Source of the DNA: a virus
Virus record (IMG/VR): IMGVR_UViG_3300047284_000516
Location: 1-64,000 of that record
Reading direction: 5' to 3' (one strand)
Length of the DNA: 64,000 nt
Under the pieces are notes generated by a model. It did no database searches, was not told the DNA's origin, and saw only the letters and a program-made list of their open reading frames with translations. The translations under genes were made by a program, and so were the position numbers. Shown here piece after piece: positions 20,072-28,299 of the stretch (position 1 is the stretch's first letter; each line of letters begins with the position of its first letter).

Positions 20072-20571
20072 CTTTTAAAATTGTACATCACACGCACCCA
20101 CTACTATCACAGAAACTTGAGTCATTTGACTTTCTCGATCCTCCTGTAGATCCAATAGAATTTGCAAAGGAACTATTTGAAACAATGATTGAAAGTGAAG
20201 CTATTGGCCTTGCAGCTAATCAATGTGGGTTCCCCTATAGGGTGTTCTGTATTAAATCCAATCCCGGTATTGTTTGTTATAATCCTAGGATAGTAGATTC
20301 TTCTACAAAAGAGGTCTTGTTGGATGAGGGGTGCGTATCCTATCCCAAATTATTTTTAAAGGTTAAACGACCACAAACTATTAAGGTTAGATACGATGAA
20401 CCGAATGGTAATACTGTAACAACAAAGTTTACTGGAATTACAGCAAGAGTATTTCTCCACGAGTATGATCATCTTGAGGGGATCAATTTCACAAGACGTT
20501 CAAATCGAATTCACTTGGACAGAGCACTTCGCCAGCAAAAATGGTTACTCCGTCACACTAAGCATGCTTAA
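20068..20571 (+). CDS. def: Peptide deformylase
   Basis: All three PDF motifs: GLAANQ, EGCVS, HEYDH. Confidence 0.92.
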   Translation: MTFKIVHHTHPLLSQKLESFDFLDPPVDPIEFAKELFETMIESEAIGLAANQCGFPYRVFCIKSNPGIVCYNPRIVDSSTKEVLLDEGCVSYPKLFLKVKRPQTIKVRYDEPNGNTVTTKFTGITARVFLHEYDHLEGINFTRRSNRIHLDRALRQQKWLLRHTKHA

Positions 20572-20725
20572 AGCGGCATGGAGGTTATGGGCAAAGGCTT
20601 TGGGAGAGAAGGCATCCCCAGATAATAAAGAAGCAGACCTTGTTGCTTGTATTAGAACAATAATTGTAGTAACATATCTTATGACTAACATTGTTATTGT
20701 AGCAGGGGTCATACATCATTGGTAA
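20564..20725 (+). CDS. Small membrane protein
   Basis: MLKAAWRLWAKALGEK... with a hydrophobic C-terminal helix; start reassigned to ATG 20564. Confidence 0.6.
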   Translation: MLKAAWRLWAKALGEKASPDNKEADLVACIRTIIVVTYLMTNIVIVAGVIHHW

Positions 20726-20735
20726 GGAACAAAAA

Positions 20736-21584
20736 ATGGCTAAACTAAAAGTATCAGAGTTGTTTTACTCTTTGCAGGGCGAGGGAAGATATATGGGTAT
20801 CCCCTCTATCTTCCTCAGAACATATGGATGCAACTTCACGTGCTCTGGATTTGGTATGGGTCTTGGAGAGAAAAGTGAAGAGCGATTGCAAATTGTAGCA
20901 GAAAATTATAAATCATATAAAGATTTACCACTTGTTCATACTGGCTGTGACAGCTATGCTTCATGGGATCCAAGGTTCAAACATCTATCACCAATGTTGG
21001 AAACTTCTGCAGTAGTGGATAGTATTAAGCAGATACTTCCTGGTAATCGTTGGGGAGACGTTCATTTGGTGATTACTGGTGGCGAGCCTCTTTTAGGTTG
21101 GCAACGCTCATATCCTGAGCTTTTGGATGACCCGAGAAACAAAGATCTACAAGAGATCACATTTGAGACGAACGGTTCACAATATCTTACACCAGAATTT
21201 GAGAAGTATCTTTTCGAAGAATGGACTCGCCACGGTAGAGATTACCAGAAGTTGACATTCTCCGTATCTCCTAAACTATCTGTATCAGGGGAACGGTGGG
21301 AGGATGCTATCAAGCCAGAAGTTATTAAACAGTATGAGACGGTTGGATACACATACTTGAAGTTTGTTGTAGCTAGTAAGTATGATGTATCTGAAGCGGA
21401 AAATGCAGTGAATGAATATCGCAAAGTTGGCTTTGGTGGTCCAGTTTATCTCATGCCCTGCGGTGGCACTGAGCAACTTTATGAACTCAATAAAACACAA
21501 GTAGCTGAACATGCAATGAAGTTGGGATGGCGATATTCCGATAGACTACAGATTCCACTCTTTAAAAATGCATGGGGTACATGA
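20736..21584 (+). CDS. queE: 7-carboxy-7-deazaguanine synthase QueE (radical SAM)
   Basis: ELFYSLQGEG, FLRTYGCNFTC...GCDS, VITGGEPLL, FETNG, SVSPKL, RLQIPLF. Confidence 0.9.
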   Translation: MAKLKVSELFYSLQGEGRYMGIPSIFLRTYGCNFTCSGFGMGLGEKSEERLQIVAENYKSYKDLPLVHTGCDSYASWDPRFKHLSPMLETSAVVDSIKQILPGNRWGDVHLVITGGEPLLGWQRSYPELLDDPRNKDLQEITFETNGSQYLTPEFEKYLFEEWTRHGRDYQKLTFSVSPKLSVSGERWEDAIKPEVIKQYETVGYTYLKFVVASKYDVSEAENAVNEYRKVGFGGPVYLMPCGGTEQLYELNKTQVAEHAMKLGWRYSDRLQIPLFKNAWGT

Positions 21585-22018
21585 TGGCATACAAATATTC
21601 ATTTCATGACTATAGTAATGATATTTTAAATCTTTACAGAAAGATTGTGGACTCTGGAACAAAATACGATTTGGTGGTTGGGGTTGCCCGAGGAGGCGTT
21701 ATTCCAGCAGTGCATTTATCCCATCTTCTTGAGGTTCCATATGCTACTCTTCAGTGGTCTACAGCAAAGGATCGGGTACAGGAGAGGAGTAATCCGCATA
21801 TTATGTGTGCTAAAGGTCCTGTTCTGATTGTCGATGATATTGTAGATGATGGTGGCACAATGAGAGGTATTATGGAGTCATATCCCCAATGTGATACCGC
21901 TTCTTTGTTACTGAATGTAACCAATAGATATAATGTGGTTCCGACATTCACATCATGGAGTTTTAGTAGAGAGGATGTTCCTCAATGGATTGATTTTTGG
22001 TGGGAGACTATTGCATGA
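21572..22018 (+). CDS. Type I purine phosphoribosyltransferase (Gpt-like)
   Basis: VGVARGGVIPA, PRPP-binding loop VLIVDDIVDDGGT, C-terminal WIDFWWE; true start may be one of the next ATGs. Confidence 0.85.
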   Translation: MGYMMAYKYSFHDYSNDILNLYRKIVDSGTKYDLVVGVARGGVIPAVHLSHLLEVPYATLQWSTAKDRVQERSNPHIMCAKGPVLIVDDIVDDGGTMRGIMESYPQCDTASLLLNVTNRYNVVPTFTSWSFSREDVPQWIDFWWETIA

Positions 22019-22521
22019 CAACAAAAGTAACAAGGCATTACAAGTACGTTTCAACAAAAGAATATCATGACGCATTTCCATGTGCATATAGGCAGTGGAG
22101 AGCGGATAGTCATTGCAACTTGATTCATGGATATAGTTTTTCCATGAAGTTCTTTTTTGGTACGGATGATTTGGATGTGCGTAACTGGGCAGCAGATTAT
22201 GGGGGTCTAAAGGAGTTGAAAAAGATCCTTGAGGATCAGTTTGATCATACCCTTTTAGTATCGGAAGATGATCCAGAGCTCGAGACATACAAATTATTGC
22301 AGCAAAAGAATATGGCAAAGCTAACAATTCTTCCAAAGCTCGGATGCGAGGGTCTAGCAGATATGCTATACAAATATGTTAATGGTGTATACATTCCAGA
22401 TATGTGGGGTCCGGGTGAAGCAGAGCGTCTCTGGTGCTTCAGAGTAGAGGTTAGAGAGACGCAGACCAATATGGCTTTCAGACAGGGTCATAGAGAATGG
22501 GGGGAAAACCTTCTTGATTGA
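22015..22521 (+). CDS. queD: 6-carboxy-5,6,7,8-tetrahydropterin synthase QueD
   Basis: SHCNLIHGY, DYGGLK, FDHTLL, EVRET; context with queE and folE. Confidence 0.88.
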   Translation: MTTKVTRHYKYVSTKEYHDAFPCAYRQWRADSHCNLIHGYSFSMKFFFGTDDLDVRNWAADYGGLKELKKILEDQFDHTLLVSEDDPELETYKLLQQKNMAKLTILPKLGCEGLADMLYKYVNGVYIPDMWGPGEAERLWCFRVEVRETQTNMAFRQGHREWGENLLD

Positions 22522-23197
22522 TTGTAAGGCGTTTATGATTGTTGTAAAAGACAATCACGTCTCGCAATTCTATTCAAAGGTATGTATTCCTTCTTGGGAG
22601 AACAGGGGTGTGGATGTGCAGCTGTGGCAGGCCTCTACACCCCTTACTATAGACAAACGTCTTAGATTTGCTCCCATGACTACAATCAAGTACAGATCAC
22701 TTGGTATATCAAAAGAACTCACACCCACAGAACGGGCAGTATGGTCAAGCCACTTTAGAATGTGGGAACACTGCATTAATATCAATCAACCAATACTCGT
22801 ATTAGAGCATGATAGTTTTTGCATCAACATCGATCATTTAACCATACAACCACAAGCGTTTGTAACATATGATAAGGGAGCAATGGGCTGCTATATCATA
22901 CGACCGGAGTTTGCTAGGGTGTTAGTTGAGGATGCTATCAAGATTAGAATAGATTGTGGACCACTGGGATATGTAAAGTGGCGATCAGAAATACACAAAA
23001 TACCGATTATTACAGCCGAACACCCCTCATACAAAATGGTTTCGAACCAAGTATATTGTCCAGACTATGGACGTACTGTTGATCACTACACGGGAACAGA
23101 CGCTAAGAATCATATGCATCGATTCAATAAATTTGGATATCTTTTTGTAGATAGAAAAGGAAATGTTGACCTTAACCGAGTGATTGAGGTATTATGA
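22514..23197 (+). CDS. Glycosyltransferase family 25-like protein
   Basis: TERAVWSSHFRMWEHC...PILVLEHDS and CYII resemble the GT25 E-x-G-C-x-x-S-H...LILEDD pattern. Confidence 0.6.
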   Translation: MIDCKAFMIVVKDNHVSQFYSKVCIPSWENRGVDVQLWQASTPLTIDKRLRFAPMTTIKYRSLGISKELTPTERAVWSSHFRMWEHCININQPILVLEHDSFCINIDHLTIQPQAFVTYDKGAMGCYIIRPEFARVLVEDAIKIRIDCGPLGYVKWRSEIHKIPIITAEHPSYKMVSNQVYCPDYGRTVDHYTGTDAKNHMHRFNKFGYLFVDRKGNVDLNRVIEVL

Positions 23198-23218
23198 GTT
23201 ATATTTTATGGAGGTAGT

Positions 23219-23902
23219 ATGGAAAAACACTTGTCGGAAGTAATTAGAGATCGTCTCAAGCAAAACAATAAGAGATACTTTGCTAGCGACAATATTTCTG
23301 ATTATATCACTGAAGATGAACAGAAGCAATTGGTTGAGGAGCTAACAGTAAAGTTTGAAGGGGTATTAGACTCGTTGATTATCGATAGAGAGAATGATCC
23401 CAATAGTCACGGCACTGCAAAGCGTCTCGCTAAAATGTATGTCTATGAACTAATGGAGGGTCGTTATTCTCCAATGCCTGATGTTACAGCGTTTCCAAAT
23501 CAAGGAGCGGATCGCTTTGAGGGAATGCTGGTAGTGAGGGCAGAGCTTGTGTCTATGTGTAGCCATCACCATCAGCCAGTTAAGGGGGTAGCAATTATCG
23601 GTATCATTCCTACAGGAGAAGTGATTGGCCTGTCCAAGTATGCGAGGATTGCTCAGTGGTGTGCTCGTAGAGGAACACTGCAAGAAGAGCTTGCCAATCA
23701 GATTGCTAAAGAAATTATGAATGCAACGGATACAGAGAATGTGGCTGTCCACTTAGACATGATTCATGGGTGTATGGAGAACCGAGGAGTGATGGCTCAT
23801 TCTAGCCAGACTCAAGCTACTGTGGTTCATGGGTTGTTTCACAACGATTCGGTCAAGGCTGAGTTTTTATCTCACGTCGATCGGCAGCTTTTAAGACGAT
23901 AA
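23219..23902 (+). CDS. folE: GTP cyclohydrolase I FolE
   Basis: SMCSHHHQP, IGLSKYARI, LQEEL, HGCMENRG. Confidence 0.95.
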   Translation: MEKHLSEVIRDRLKQNNKRYFASDNISDYITEDEQKQLVEELTVKFEGVLDSLIIDRENDPNSHGTAKRLAKMYVYELMEGRYSPMPDVTAFPNQGADRFEGMLVVRAELVSMCSHHHQPVKGVAIIGIIPTGEVIGLSKYARIAQWCARRGTLQEELANQIAKEIMNATDTENVAVHLDMIHGCMENRGVMAHSSQTQATVVHGLFHNDSVKAEFLSHVDRQLLRR

Positions 23903-24485
23903 AGGAGCCATCCTCGCATGAGCTTATCATTTTTTTCATTTCGTAATCGGATAGTTGATAAGCTCTTGCTGCAGCTCTTAATGAATAAAAATAGCCATTA
24001 GGTGTTTTGACGTGGTTGGAATGTGGTCTGTTTTTAAGGTATTTTTCTTTTGATTCTTTTCTAAACATTGGATTGTGTTCTGTCATTCTTTTCTTTACTA
24101 TTTGTTTAACCTTTTCAGAAGCAAAAATATTATCCTTACCTTTTTTATATGTCCCTTTGCGTTTTCTTGTTTGAACACCTTTAAAATGGCTTTCTTTGCT
24201 CCAGCCCGGAGGAGGAACATGAAAGGATTTATCAAATAATTTATAAGCCCACATCATTTTGTGTTTATTTTGGCCTTCAGTAAATTTTATAAGTAAAAGA
24301 TGTGCTAGTTTGTGTTCTCGGAATGTTAACAGTACGATATTTTCTTCATCGTCGTTGCCACCCAGTGACCTTGGAATTATGTGGTGGAATTGCTGGTCGT
24401 CACCTTTAACTTTAACACGTCGTTGACTTTTAGCTCTTTCTATTAGAAGATTGTAGTGTTTTAGATATTTGTTTGTTGTGAACAT
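23853..24485 (-). mobile_element. Free-standing HNH homing endonuclease
   Basis: HHIIPRSLGGNDDEENIVLLTFREHKLAHLLL; only long credible minus-strand gene; own TATAAATA upstream; start 24485 or 24500. Confidence 0.85.
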
Positions 24486-24516
24486 AATGGCTGCATCCAA
24501 AAGGTTGTATGTAAAC

Positions 24517-24524
24517 TATTTATA
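24517..24524 (-). promoter_or_regulatory. T4-type late promoter driving the HNH gene
   Basis: TATTTATA on + equals TATAAATA on the minus strand, about 30 nt upstream of the HNH start. Confidence 0.7.
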
Positions 24525-24539
24525 AAAAGAGGTGTTAAG

Positions 24540-24899
24540 ATGCAAATCGCTAACAAAAAATTTATTTGGGTTACGTTTCAACGAGAAGGTATACACAACT
24601 ATCCTATGGCTCCAGAGGGAGTGGAGTTTCTTAAATACCCACATCGTCATATATTTCATTTCAGAGTAGAACTGGAAGTATTTCATGATGATCGTGATGT
24701 GGAGTTTATTTTATTTAAACGAGAATTGGAAGCCATGTTTAATCAAAAGGGCATGCAGTTTGACTTTAAATCATGTGAAATGCTAGCAGATGATATCGCC
24801 AAGTATGTAAAGGAGCATTATCCTAATCGGGATTTAGTTGTCGAAGTCAGTGAAGATGGGGAAAATGGATGTCGTAACTACTATCAAGGAGTACAGTGA
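24540..24899 (+). CDS. Second QueD-like T-fold protein, probable DpdL-type 7-carboxy-7-deazaguanine decarboxylase
   Basis: GIHNYP, PHRHIFHF (HxH metal motif), DRDVEFI, SCEMLA, EVSEDGENG; adjacent to the transglycosylase. Confidence 0.6.
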   Translation: MQIANKKFIWVTFQREGIHNYPMAPEGVEFLKYPHRHIFHFRVELEVFHDDRDVEFILFKRELEAMFNQKGMQFDFKSCEMLADDIAKYVKEHYPNRDLVVEVSEDGENGCRNYYQGVQ

Positions 24900-25741
24900 T
24901 GGCTTCGCCAATTAATTTCTGTCATATCGCACCTATTCCTCATTTGAAGGATTTTGTATCAACGAACAATGTTCATCTTACTCTTGCTCATTTAGTAGAA
25001 ACCAGTGATGAATATGCAGATTTCTATCATAACCGAAAGTCTGGCCAGGTTATTATGGATAATAGTGCATTTGAAATGTACAAGCAAGGTCGACCAATGT
25101 ATGATCCAAGTAAGCTGATTGATATGGCCCGAAGGTGTCGAGCAGATTATATTGTTATGTCAGATTATCCGGGAGAGTCTTGGCTAAAGACTAAGCACGC
25201 AGCTCAAGAATTAATTCCTCAGATCAAACAAGCTGGATTCAAGACATTCTATGTTCCTCAAAGTGAGCCAGGGCATCTCGAAGGGTACATTGCTTCTTTA
25301 GTCTGGGCGTTAGAAGATGGTGATGTGGATATGATTGGTCTTTCAATTCTCGGTGTACCTATGGCTATGGGAATCAAGCAGGATCACAACAAAGCATATT
25401 TTGCTCAAAGATTCCTCAGTCGTTGGCGATTGTTTCAGATTCTTGATCAGCGTGGGTATCTCTCACACACTGAAAGAGCAACTAAGCGCTTTCATTGCCT
25501 TGGAATGCAGGATGGACCCAATGAGATCTTGCTGCTGAAGCCATGGGCTCAGCACATCTACTCTTGGGATTCTAGTGCTGCTGTATGGGCAGGATTGAAT
25601 TATATTAAGTTTGATAGTTCACCTACGGGCTTGATGCATGGAAAGTATGAAGCGGAGGTTGATTTTAACTTCAAAGCAAGTCCAGCAACCATTAAACATG
25701 TGATGCGTAACATTAATTACATTAACAGTCTATGCGCATAA
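24896..25741 (+). CDS. TGT-fold guanine transglycosylase (DpdA-like, possibly DpdA3 type)
   Basis: IMDNSAFE (cf. DSGxF), MSDYP, FYVPQ, RFHCLG and YSWDSS occur in the order of TGT/DpdA catalytic motifs. Confidence 0.7.
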   Translation: MMASPINFCHIAPIPHLKDFVSTNNVHLTLAHLVETSDEYADFYHNRKSGQVIMDNSAFEMYKQGRPMYDPSKLIDMARRCRADYIVMSDYPGESWLKTKHAAQELIPQIKQAGFKTFYVPQSEPGHLEGYIASLVWALEDGDVDMIGLSILGVPMAMGIKQDHNKAYFAQRFLSRWRLFQILDQRGYLSHTERATKRFHCLGMQDGPNEILLLKPWAQHIYSWDSSAAVWAGLNYIKFDSSPTGLMHGKYEAEVDFNFKASPATIKHVMRNINYINSLCA

Positions 25742-26292
25742 TTGCTCTCTCCGGTCCCAAAGGTTCTGGGAAAGATACTATTGGTCGTCTACTAATGGAC
25801 ATGTATCCCGGTACACGAACGGTGGCATTTGCTGACCCCATTAAGAAGAAGATCCAGCAGTTTTTTGAACTCAATAGTGATGATCAAGAACAGTATGATT
25901 TGTTTAAGCGTACACGAATCTCATATCAGCTGCCAGGTTACCTAACACACACTATTGAAGGTAGACATCTAGTACGGGAGATTGGTATGCTGATGAGATC
26001 ATATGATCCAGATCAGTTTACAACATATGTGCGAGCCCAGATCATGCAATATCCAGATACATTATGGGTTATCACAGATCTACGGTTTGATAATGAGATT
26101 GCAATGCTTACGGAAATGAATGCAAAGTTTGTAAGAGTGATTCGTAAGCATTACGAATATGATGGCCATATAACGGAACAGCCTATACTATCGCAAGATA
26201 ATTGTGATTATATTATTAACAATAACTCAAACATTGAAGCAATGAAATTTCAGCTTCGTGAGATGGTTGAGTCCTTTTGGGAGACAGAATGA
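25732..26292 (+). CDS. Deoxynucleoside monophosphate kinase (T4 gp1-like)
   Basis: SGPKGSGKDT P-loop, FADPIK, ITDLRFDNE, HITE. Confidence 0.88.
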   Translation: MRIIALSGPKGSGKDTIGRLLMDMYPGTRTVAFADPIKKKIQQFFELNSDDQEQYDLFKRTRISYQLPGYLTHTIEGRHLVREIGMLMRSYDPDQFTTYVRAQIMQYPDTLWVITDLRFDNEIAMLTEMNAKFVRVIRKHYEYDGHITEQPILSQDNCDYIINNNSNIEAMKFQLREMVESFWETE

Positions 26293-26792
26293 AACATATT
26301 TTAGGACCTAATTCACGAAGCTCGCTGACAAATGTGGCAAGCGGTGACTCACAGCCCAATGCTGTAGATCTTCGTCTTAGCAAAGTGTTCCAAATGAAGA
26401 ATGCTATTTTTCAGCTAAGCAATGAGCAGAAACAACATAGAGGGATTGAGCATGAGATTGTACCGGATGAGGAGGGATACTTTAATCTTTCAGTTGGAAG
26501 CTATGAGGTCGTTATGGAAAACATTATCCGTGTGGGGGAGAATGAAGCAGGTTGGGTTATCACTCGCTCTACTCTCAATCGTAACGGTTGTTTCCTTACT
26601 AGCGGTCTCTACGATAGTGGTTATCATGGTGCTATGGCTGGTGTATTGCATGTTACAACCGGTCCAGCAAGAATTAAGCAAGGCACACGGATCGGACAGT
26701 ACCTGAGTTTTGAGGCAGAGTCTCTTAGCAGCTATGATGGGGATTATGGTATTAATAAACAGCATGATAAAAAATATGGAGAAGTTAAATGA
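26289..26792 (+). CDS. dUTPase / dCTP deaminase superfamily protein
   Basis: QPNAVDLRL, TRSTLNRNG, YDSGYHG, TRIGQ. Confidence 0.8.
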   Translation: MKHILGPNSRSSLTNVASGDSQPNAVDLRLSKVFQMKNAIFQLSNEQKQHRGIEHEIVPDEEGYFNLSVGSYEVVMENIIRVGENEAGWVITRSTLNRNGCFLTSGLYDSGYHGAMAGVLHVTTGPARIKQGTRIGQYLSFEAESLSSYDGDYGINKQHDKKYGEVK

Positions 26793-27640
26793 GTTTTGAA
26801 ATTAAGATCTCGCTAGAGGAACTACAGAAACGTAAGTTGTTTGTTGCAACCCCAATGTATGGTGGCCAATGTGCTGGAATGTATGCTCGCTCCATTGCCG
26901 ATCTTTCTGCTACATGCGCAAAGAATGGTATTCAGCTGCAGCTGTATTTTTTGTTCAATGAGTCTTTGATTACAAGAGCACGTAACTATTGTGTTGATGA
27001 ATTTTTGCGTAGCGAAGCTACGCATATGATGTTCATTGATAGTGATATTGGATTTAACCCACAAGACGTATTGGCTCTACTTGCATTGCAAGATGATGAG
27101 AGCCCATATGATGTGATTGGTGGACCATATCCTAAGAAATGTATTTCCTGGGAAAAGATCAAACAAGCGGTGGATAAAGGTGTAGCCGATGAGAACCCCA
27201 ATGTCCTGGAGCGCTTTGTGGGAGACTATGTGTTTAATCCTAAGTCTGATCAGCGTGAGATTCCAATTGGGAAGCCAGTGGAAGTTCGTGAACTTGGTAC
27301 AGGTTTTATGATGATCCGTCGATCTGCATTTGAAAAATACCGTGAGGCATTTCCTCACCTTAGCTATAAGCCTGACCATGTACGAACGGAACACTTTGAT
27401 GGTAGCCGCGAGATTCACGCATACTTTGATTGTATTATTGATCCGGAGAGCAAGCGTTACTTGTCCGAGGATTATATGTTCTGTTACAACATGGCTAAGA
27501 TCGGTGGCGGTGTATGGCTGTGCCCCTGGATGAAGATGAACCACGTGGGGTCCTATGTGTTTGGTGGTAGTCTGGCTGACTTAGCTTCTATTGGAGCATC
27601 TGCTACTGCTGATGTGAATAAAATCAAGAAGAAGGGTTAA
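26789..27640 (+). CDS. GT-A fold glycosyltransferase-like protein
   Basis: FVATPMYGG, NESLITRARN, MFIDSDIGF (DxD), GTGFMMIRR, YLSEDYMFC. Confidence 0.7.
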   Translation: MSFEIKISLEELQKRKLFVATPMYGGQCAGMYARSIADLSATCAKNGIQLQLYFLFNESLITRARNYCVDEFLRSEATHMMFIDSDIGFNPQDVLALLALQDDESPYDVIGGPYPKKCISWEKIKQAVDKGVADENPNVLERFVGDYVFNPKSDQREIPIGKPVEVRELGTGFMMIRRSAFEKYREAFPHLSYKPDHVRTEHFDGSREIHAYFDCIIDPESKRYLSEDYMFCYNMAKIGGGVWLCPWMKMNHVGSYVFGGSLADLASIGASATADVNKIKKKG

Positions 27641-27642
27641 TT

Positions 27643-28299
27643 ATGAAACTGAGTACGAGAACCATTCAGATTCTAAAAAATTTCTCGACCATCAACCAAT
27701 CTCTGCTGTTTAGGCAGGGTGATGTGTTGAGAACGACGACACCCAGTAAAACAATCATGGCAAAGGCAACAATTGCGGAGAATTTTGATACAGAGTTTGC
27801 CATCTATGACCTCTCACGTCTAATCAATACACTTTCTTTGTTTGGGGATCCTGAAATCCACCCACTCGATGGTTATCTGCAGATTTCTGAAGGATCACAG
27901 TGTGTAAAATATAATTACACCGATGTTGATTCTATTGTTACACCCTCAAAGGAGATTAAGCTGCCACAATGTGAGATTAATTTTCGTATGACGAGTGCCA
28001 ATCTTTCATCTGTCCTAAAGGGGATGAATGTTCTTGGTCTACCTGAACTGATGGTCGTCGGGGATGGGAAGAATATTTTCCTGTCTGCTGGTAATGTAAA
28101 GCAAAGTTCTGGTGATAACTACAAGATCAATGTTGGCGACACAGAGCACGAATTCAATATTGTCTTCCGTGCAGAGAATGTAAAGATGATGGCAGAGGAC
28201 TATGAAGTACAGATCTCGTCCAAAGGGATTGCTCATTTGAAAGCATCAGATGTAGAATACTGGATTGCAGCAGAGAGTAGTTCAACATTCTACAATTAA
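27643..28299 (+). CDS. gp45: Sliding clamp gp45
   Basis: MKLSTRTIQILKNFSTINQS, FAIYDL, EYWIAAE. Confidence 0.93.
   Translation: MKLSTRTIQILKNFSTINQSLLFRQGDVLRTTTPSKTIMAKATIAENFDTEFAIYDLSRLINTLSLFGDPEIHPLDGYLQISEGSQCVKYNYTDVDSIVTPSKEIKLPQCEINFRMTSANLSSVLKGMNVLGLPELMVVGDGKNIFLSAGNVKQSSGDNYKINVGDTEHEFNIVFRAENVKMMAEDYEVQISSKGIAHLKASDVEYWIAAESSSTFYN

Follow-up and report, generated by a model that had tools for sequence, protein, structure and literature searches.

The first 64,000 nucleotides of the IMG/VR virus record IMGVR_UViG_3300047284_000516 (hereafter 'the window'; the full record holds 79,894 bases and is ~45% complete by CheckV) encode, at 20736 to 27640, a 7-deazaguanine DNA-modification cluster that lacks QueC and includes a predicted DpdL together with a predicted DpdA-type transglycosylase of the DpdA3 kind. 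The module as such is already known: the original prediction had considered the combination undescribed, yet its core of FolE, QueD, QueE, DpdL, DpdA3 and a deoxynucleoside triphosphate (dNTP) pyrophosphatase was published for Cellulophaga phage phiST (Cui et al. 2023, PMC10516641). The novelty lies in the constant company of DpdA3 with a kinase and a dNTP phosphohydrolase. Because these partners accompany DpdA3 so constantly, with interchangeable folds and with fusions of DpdA3 to DUF3310, we favour a pre-replicative route, and see an even chance that the cluster is a phiST-type module for genome-wide replacement of guanine by unsubstituted 7-deazaguanine (dDG), in which DpdA3 would exchange the base on nucleotides before replication.

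DpdA3 is encoded by a 281-codon open reading frame (ORF) at 24896..25741 (plus strand, as are all module genes described below unless stated otherwise), which yields 280 amino acids from the probable ATG at 24899. Searches of Pfam and of the PDB sequences returned nothing for this protein or for DpdL, and fold and profile methods were therefore needed for both. An AlphaFold2 model of DpdA3, built from an alignment of 30 homologues, reached a predicted local distance difference test score (pLDDT) of 93.3. Foldseek matched the model to tRNA-guanine transglycosylase (TGT; E 5e-7, probability 1.0), and in BFVD it matched the 259-amino acid phiST protein M4SLA5 (TM-scores 0.80/0.86, E 6e-16). The exhaustive structural search by VIA-align ranked ArcTGT (Z 17.1), DpdA (7ui4; Z 16.2) and TGT (Z 15.5) at the top, with Cap10 (Z 14.7) and unrelated barrels (Z ≤14.7) below this group. 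In agreement, hhalign aligned the DpdA3 family profile over its full length to phiST gp042 (CGPG_00065; 97%, E 1.3e-10, 243 columns) as well as to CPT_0056 of Campylobacter phage CP220 (93.7%, E 1.9e-7), the two proteins on which DpdA3 was founded. By these fold and profile matches the protein is predicted to be a DpdA3-type transglycosylase, i.e. a compact TIM barrel of the TGT superfamily without the zinc subdomain, and in the viral record it is encoded with FolE, QueD and QueE and without QueC.

Three aspartates, D54 (in DNSAFE), D89 (in SDYP) and D224 (in WDSS), are invariant in the family alignment, and D54 and D224 also align with conserved aspartates of a distant DpdA3 set, phiST and CP220. 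Judged by the resemblance of their motifs, the three may correspond to Asp102, Asp156 and Asp280 of TGT. Members of the family are acidic proteins (median pI 5.3).

The second diagnostic gene (24540..24899) encodes a T-fold protein of 119 amino acids that has no match in Pfam and belongs to phrog_17812 (E 8e-33). In tblastn searches it matched the known DpdL genes of phiST (CGPG_00067; E 3e-15, 40% identity) and Acidovorax phage ACP17 (E 2e-27), and its residues 31-39, LKYPHRHIF, are an exact instance of the LxxxHRHxF signature (LxxPHRH[IM]F in relatives), which in DpdL stands where QueD has CxxxHGH (Cui et al. 2023, PMC10516641). Homology and motif thus identify it as a probable DpdL, a paralogue of QueD for which the role of a decarboxylase turning 7-carboxy-7-deazaguanine (CDG) into 7-deazaguanine has been proposed and is unproven (Cui et al. 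2023, PMC10516641). DpdL is found in 82 of 85 related loci, mostly immediately upstream of DpdA3.

DpdL also occurs in other surroundings. In ACP17 (L086 5698-8381) and in the jumbo phage PA5oct (L087 5224-9609), it adjoins a GT-B-like protein with weak GT1/GT4 matches and lies beside a large uncharacterised protein of 424 or 540 amino acids, with PA5oct adding an epimerase-like protein and a phosphoribosyltransferase (PRTase). No DpdA3 of the window's subfamily (A1-like) was found in either genome at E values up to 1, and the 424- and 540-amino acid proteins do not match the family profile. This arrangement may represent another way to attach the base.

The 85 related loci, which comprise 80 IMG/VR loci and five isolate genomes, share the order gp47, gp46, peptide deformylase, QueE, (PRTase), QueD, FolE, DpdL, DpdA3, (kinase), dCTP deaminase (DCD)-fold protein, GT-A-fold glycosyltransferase (GT), gp45 and gp44. 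A putative nucleotide kinase adjoins DpdA3 in every one of them, be it of the T4 gp1 type, of the T7 gp1.7 type (DUF3310) or, in phiST, an AAA_18 protein, and in 84 of the 85 a dNTP pyrophosphatase (DCD-fold, or MazG in phiST) accompanies the pair. The original prediction had read the kinase and pyrophosphatase genes as hints of a nucleotide-level route; this suggestion gains strength from the finding that both are constant neighbours of DpdA3 and that other lineages have unrelated folds in their place.

In the window, the kinase slot is filled by a T4 gp1-type deoxynucleoside monophosphate (dNMP) kinase (25732..26292; PF21448 E 9e-19, 68.4 bits against a cut-off of 27.1; phrog_139 E 6.5e-37) with the P-loop GPKGSGKD, whose gene overlaps that of DpdA3 by 10 nt and is thereby translationally coupled to it. 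In each of the 84 close loci, DpdA3 is immediately followed by either a gp1-type kinase gene (39, and the window in addition) or a short DUF3310 ORF (45), never by both. DUF3310 is the sole recognised domain of T7 gp1.7 (E 4.5e-23), a nucleotide kinase for dTMP and dGMP (PMC11897194, PMC9339283), and the module ORFs align to gp1.7 residues 123-186. Moreover, DpdA3 and DUF3310 are fused in phage RHph_I1_18 and in five of ten long representatives.

More distant systems fill the slot differently. While the DpdA3 of phiST is accompanied by an AAA_18 protein and MazG, the CP220 homologue is flanked by an HD phosphohydrolase fused to AAA_33 and by an AAA_28 protein, and this triad sits among structural genes, far from the other pathway genes. 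Two distant loci, L097 and L098, show the order DpdL, DUF1599, DpdA3 and DCD-fold protein, and in another, L099, AAA_18 precedes DpdA3. DUF1599 ('nucleotide modification associated domain 1'), at L098 5123-5650 and L097 5604-5975, occupies the kinase/DUF3310 position; a relationship to DUF3310 was considered and hhalign shows no similarity. As a separate observation, the phage contig L097 (IMGVR_UViG_3300033119_001974), whose module reads FolE, QueE, DpdL, DUF1599-like, DpdA3 and DCD-fold protein, appears to use TGA as a sense codon, as the fraction of it covered by open frames of 100 or more codons increases from 0.37 to 0.92 when TGA is read as tryptophan.

Downstream of the kinase lies the gene for a putative dNTP pyrophosphatase of the dUTPase/DCD fold (26277..26792, probable ATG at 26289; PF22769 E 1.6e-13), which is found in 83 of the 85 loci and follows the kinase slot in 83 of the 84 close ones. 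Among NCBIfam models, archaeal-type dUTPase (E 4.6e-24) is preferred over dCTP deaminase (E 1.9e-10), and in an alignment to the Mtb bifunctional DCD-DUT 2qxx the window protein carries valine in place of the glutamate of the ...TLELSN... stretch. On the assumption that this glutamate is the catalytic residue of the deaminase, a dCTP deaminase was rejected. The catalytic Asp/Tyr motif TSGLYDSGYxG is conserved. Across 50,697 phage records, this hydrolase subfamily occurs only in the four isolate phages that carry the window's DpdA3 subfamily. Cultured carriers of that subfamily are Rhizobium phage RHph_I1_18, Aeromonas phage Ahp1_CNU-2021 and Vibrio phages D479 and Bakedbeans. We propose that the enzyme acts on dGTP.

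The genes for synthesis of the base are complete up to CDG. FolE catalyses the first step, from GTP to dihydroneopterin triphosphate, and FolE, QueD and QueE together convert GTP to the free base CDG. In the window, FolE (GTP cyclohydrolase I) is encoded at 23219..23902 (PF01227 E 7.8e-37; phrog_2197 E 2e-46), the QueD-like 6-carboxytetrahydropterin synthase at 21997..22521 with a probable ATG at 22015 (PF01242 E 2e-14; phrog_2389 E 8e-36), and the QueE-like radical-SAM CDG synthase at 20736..21584 (phrog_2076 E 3.8e-53). FolE was found in 64 of the 85 loci and QueE in 44, where QueE invariably lies upstream of DpdA3. Both pterin and radical-SAM enzymes depart from the textbook motifs. QueD reads CxxxHGY (CNLIHGY or CSKWHGY) instead of CxxxHGH, so that tyrosine replaces the third zinc-ligand histidine, and it does so in all module QueDs (the window and L005-L085), i.e. 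throughout the lineage. NCBIfam QueE models match the window's QueE (E 8e-16), all below their own cut-offs. The protein has just four cysteines, at positions 32, 36, 71 and 242, and its radical-SAM motif would therefore be Cx3Cx34C, with cluster cysteines 32, 36 and 71, rather than the usual compact form.

A search of the rest of the record for queC and queF, as the original prediction had called for, revealed none: within the 79,894 bases of this ~45% complete genome there is no QueC (no match to PF06508), no QueF and no canonical TGT. QueC is likewise absent from six of eight complete module-bearing genomes (Ahp1, Bakedbeans, RHph_I1_18, phiST, G001 and G002). The other two, Vibrio phage D479 (L091 1336-2142) and G003 (L092 1174-1800), encode, at a distance from the module, proteins of 208-268 amino acids whose match to the QueC model is confined to its C-terminal third. 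With QueC missing, 7-cyano-7-deazaguanine (preQ0) cannot be made, and the QueC or Gat-QueC of the preQ0-based systems (dPreQ0, dPreQ1, dG+ and dADG) is not in the record. The original prediction had left the product as either the deoxynucleoside of CDG or unsubstituted 7-deazaguanine, possibly at high substitution; because the QueC-less cluster has DpdL and a DpdA3-type transglycosylase, dDG is the predicted product, probably at full substitution.

Under the pre-replicative reading, FolE, QueD and QueE would make CDG from GTP, and DpdL would decarboxylate it to 7-deazaguanine. The dUTPase-fold enzyme would hydrolyse dGTP to dGMP, thereby both starving the polymerase of dGTP and supplying the substrate on which DpdA3 would replace guanine by 7-deazaguanine. 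The resulting 7-deaza-dGMP would be phosphorylated by the dedicated dNMP kinase and then by host nucleoside diphosphate kinase, and the phage polymerase would use the 7-deaza-dGTP in place of dGTP. We infer the attachment steps, from hydrolysis and exchange to phosphorylation and use by the polymerase, from the protein families, their co-occurrence and the fusions. Such a route would account for full substitution, for the dedicated kinase, for the compact and acidic DpdA3 and for the failure of DpdL and DpdA to produce dDG in Escherichia coli. We give slightly less than an even chance to the wider proposal that DpdA3 is the first TGT-fold enzyme to exchange a base on a free deoxynucleotide and that all fully substituted genomes (dDG, dADG and fdPreQ1) are made pre-replicatively by a triad of hydrolase, DpdA3 and kinase.

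The closest characterised system is phiST, in which FolE, QueD, QueE, DpdL and DpdA3 go along with 100% dDG; DpdA3 was proposed as the inserting enzyme there, and a dUTPase/MazG gene was noted in the same cluster, while kinases and PRTases are not mentioned (Cui et al. 2023, PMC10516641). Like the window, phiST combines the same core enzymes with the lack of QueC, has DpdL beside DpdA3, and carries a dNTP pyrophosphatase and a small kinase-like ATPase in the operon. It differs in being a Cbastvirus with MazG and AAA_18, whereas the window comes from a T4-like myovirus with the dUTPase/DCD fold and a gp1-type kinase; the two DpdA3 proteins are only 25% identical, the window has additional PRTase, GT25-like and HNH genes, and its product is a predicted one. 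CP220, a Firehammervirus with complete substitution of dG by dADG (100%), resembles the window in that its DpdA3 homologue is flanked by phosphohydrolase and P-loop kinase-like genes. Its base is 7-amido-7-deazaguanine, though, its phosphohydrolase is the HD domain fused to AAA_33 and its triad lies among structural genes. The DNA preQ0 insertase DpdA (7ui4) and the TGTs share with the window's DpdA3 the TIM-barrel fold (Z 15.5-17.1) and aspartate motifs resembling the catalytic ones. In contrast to them, the window protein is 100-300 residues shorter, lacks the CxCxxC...H zinc subdomain, has no Pfam TGT match and is acidic; the known DpdA and TGT members act on polymers and give partial substitution.

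In its logic, the proposed route is closer to pre-replicative base replacement as known from the hydroxymethylcytosine (hmC) pathway of T4 (gp56 dCTPase, gp42 and gp1 kinase) and from the dZ pathway (MazZ, PurZ and DatZ). In each, hydrolysis by a dNTP hydrolase provides the dNMP while draining the pool of the canonical dNTP, the modifier works at the dNMP level and a dedicated kinase follows, and the window's kinase is itself a homologue of T4 gp1 of the hmC pathway. The difference lies in the modifying step, in which a TGT-fold enzyme would here exchange the base, and no precedent is known for such an exchange at the nucleotide level.

The PRTase gene (21572..22018) lies between queE and queD and encodes a small, Gpt/XPRT-like type I 6-oxopurine PRTase (PF00156 E 2e-13, 50.4 bits against a cut-off of 26.3) with the 5-phosphoribosyl 1-diphosphate (PRPP) loop VLIVDDIVDDGGT. 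Its best solved relatives are the purine PRTase 1vdm (E 3.6e-8) and xanthine-guanine (Gpt) PRTases, and it falls below the NCBIfam equivalog cut-offs. The co-occurrence with DpdA3 and DpdL that the original prediction had suggested checking turned out to be recurrent, in that 22 loci have a PRTase, which lies between QueE and DpdA3 in all but one of them (21), and at the same time partial, as roughly every second locus that extends to QueE lacks it. Its presence is independent of the kinase type. A PRTase is also found next to QueE/DpdL in locus L096 and in PA5oct. The PRTase is thus a recurrent yet optional accessory of the module. For its role we prefer salvage, in which released guanine would be converted back to GMP and on to GTP for use by FolE, over activation of 7-deazaguanine.

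The pre-replicative reading has to be weighed above all against the published model, in which DpdA3 works after replication and exchanges free 7-deazaguanine into finished DNA (Cui et al. 2023, PMC10516641), so that the kinase and dUTPase-fold genes would serve general nucleotide metabolism. We consider this model rather unlikely, although it was argued explicitly in that study and although the DNA enzymes so far characterised in the TGT/DpdA superfamily, of which DpdA3 is a member, work on polymers; gp1-type kinases are, in addition, common in T4-like phages without que genes. However, the model offers no reason for the adjacency of DpdA3 and kinase in 85 of 85 loci or for the swaps among unrelated kinase folds, nor does it explain the DpdA3-DUF3310 fusions or a hydrolase subfamily that is found only with DpdA3. 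A post-replicative exchange needs no dNTP pyrophosphatase, and 100% substitution is typical of pre-replicative routes. Furthermore, E. coli supplied with only DpdL and DpdA did not make dDG (Cui et al. 2023, PMC10516641). A modified-dGTP route had formerly been suggested for Campylobacter phages and was set aside in 2023, and our literature search found no later paper on the pre- versus post-replicative point. An entry via the PRTase appears improbable. Here, 7-deazaguanine and PRPP would give 7-deaza-GMP, which would be phosphorylated, reduced by ribonucleotide reductase and built into DNA from 7-deaza-dGTP, leaving DpdA3 an auxiliary or proofreading part. The 6-oxopurine type of the PRTase, its position between queE and queD and its presence beside QueE/DpdL in the unrelated L096 and PA5oct, the latter without an A1-like DpdA3, are consistent with such an entry. 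Set against this, the PRTase is present in only about half of the covering loci while DpdA3, kinase and hydrolase are universal, and the conserved tyrosine of the dUTPase motif suggests that the hydrolase may prefer deoxynucleotides. That the genes merely boost the host's supply of queuosine precursor or folate as auxiliary metabolic genes, with no DNA modification at all, seems very improbable: FolE and the Que genes are indeed common to the tRNA queuosine and folate pathways, and for phages lacking DpdA a role of this kind has been suggested in the past, but no preQ0 can arise without QueC, DpdL and DpdA3 are specific to DNA-modifying phages and phiST, with the same core, has 100% dDG.

Several points weigh against the pre-replicative reading itself. 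The steps beyond QueE are predictions. The kinase role of a lone DUF3310 domain is putative, no activity is known for DUF1599, and the DCD-fold enzyme, predicted from its fold, may simply be a dUTPase of the usual kind. In L096, neither a kinase nor a hydrolase was recognised next to DpdA3, where one neighbour of 205 amino acids lay outside the Pfam search. Since the 80 IMG/VR loci form one lineage, with DpdA3 proteins 50-57% identical, their synteny is partly inherited; the best tree has five to six changes of kinase type, and strongly supported branches force just one. Recurrent independent switching of the kinase within the T4-like lineage was accordingly considered and is not proven. Lastly, a distant queC may exist, given that the record is 45% complete and that two complete relatives carry a partial QueC-like gene.

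The remaining genes of the cluster do not appear to belong to the pathway. The original prediction had suggested that two GTs could add a sugar within the module, and neither fits. The GT-A-fold protein (26789..27640; phrog_1574 E 5e-64, weak Pfam GT2/Anp1 matches) has homologues that are 72%, 56% and 49% identical in Stenotrophomonas phage DLP6, Caulobacter phage Cr30 and Sinorhizobium phage phiM12, respectively. In DLP6 and Cr30 the gene lies between peptide deformylase and gp45, as in the window, and these phages have no DpdA3 and no deazaguanine genes. It was rejected as a module component, being a backbone gene of the module-less DLP6, Cr30 and phiM12, and the module appears to have been inserted next to this backbone gene of the T4-like lineage. 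The GT25-like gene (22514..23197, probable ATG at 22535, 220 amino acids; PF01755 E 8e-7, 29.5 bits against a cut-off of 24) lacks a counterpart in every one of the 85 loci, and among 5.8 billion clusters a word-based search recovers only the gene itself. The ESM Atlas groups it with phage GT25 clusters. It too was rejected as a component, on account of its absence from the 85 loci and its orphan status in the word-based search, and is probably an accessory insertion unique to the window phage, a passenger. Nothing ties either GT gene to DNA modification. The HNH homing endonuclease gene (23853..24500; PF01844 E 3.6e-6, phrog_655 E 8e-21) lies on the minus strand, antisense between folE and dpdL, and overlaps the final 50 nt of folE. 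It is a selfish insertion outside the pathway, with a homologue in just one of the 85 loci, at another place in the locus. Since a homing endonuclease gene is annotated at the equivalent position in D479, the folE-dpdL junction seems to be a recurrent homing site.

As for the setting, the run of genes listed in the original prediction is real: all are ORFs on the plus strand except for the HNH gene, each backed by Pfam or PHROGs families or by fold and profile matches, with significance throughout save for the GT-A-fold protein and its weak Pfam matches. The probable true starts of QueD, the GT25-like protein, DpdA3 and the hydrolase given above derive from database gene calls and in-frame ATGs. 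Because the genes are tightly packed, most of them overlapping by a few bases, a single operon is suggested. One flank of the module holds homologues of T4 gp47/gp46 and a peptide deformylase, the other the gp45 sliding clamp (27643..28299) and the gp44/gp62 clamp loader, which identifies the virus as a T4-like myovirus. Megablast of the region against the 50,697 phage records gave no match and hence no close relative. An ORF of 86 amino acids (20465-20725; phrog_1679) lies between the deformylase gene and queE, and its homologues in six related loci lie beyond the opposite end of the module, at ~5 kb downstream of DpdA3. The module is very common: the DpdA3-like protein has 1780 relatives at 90% clustering, 1234 clusters at 50% identity and, in IMG/VR, 462 relatives (contigs).

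Guanine-free, 7-deazaguanine-containing DNA resists many restriction enzymes, and to the known carriers of such DNA the window adds a very abundant lineage of T4-like environmental phages whose genomes are probably free of guanine. The company that DpdA3 keeps makes the question of modified dNTP versus editing of DNA directly testable and names the minimal gene set for a reconstitution, and making 7-deaza-dGTP with enzymes would be useful in practice, too. If DpdA3 does act before replication, this would overturn the published post-replicative model and would explain why reconstitution of DpdA3 in E. coli failed.

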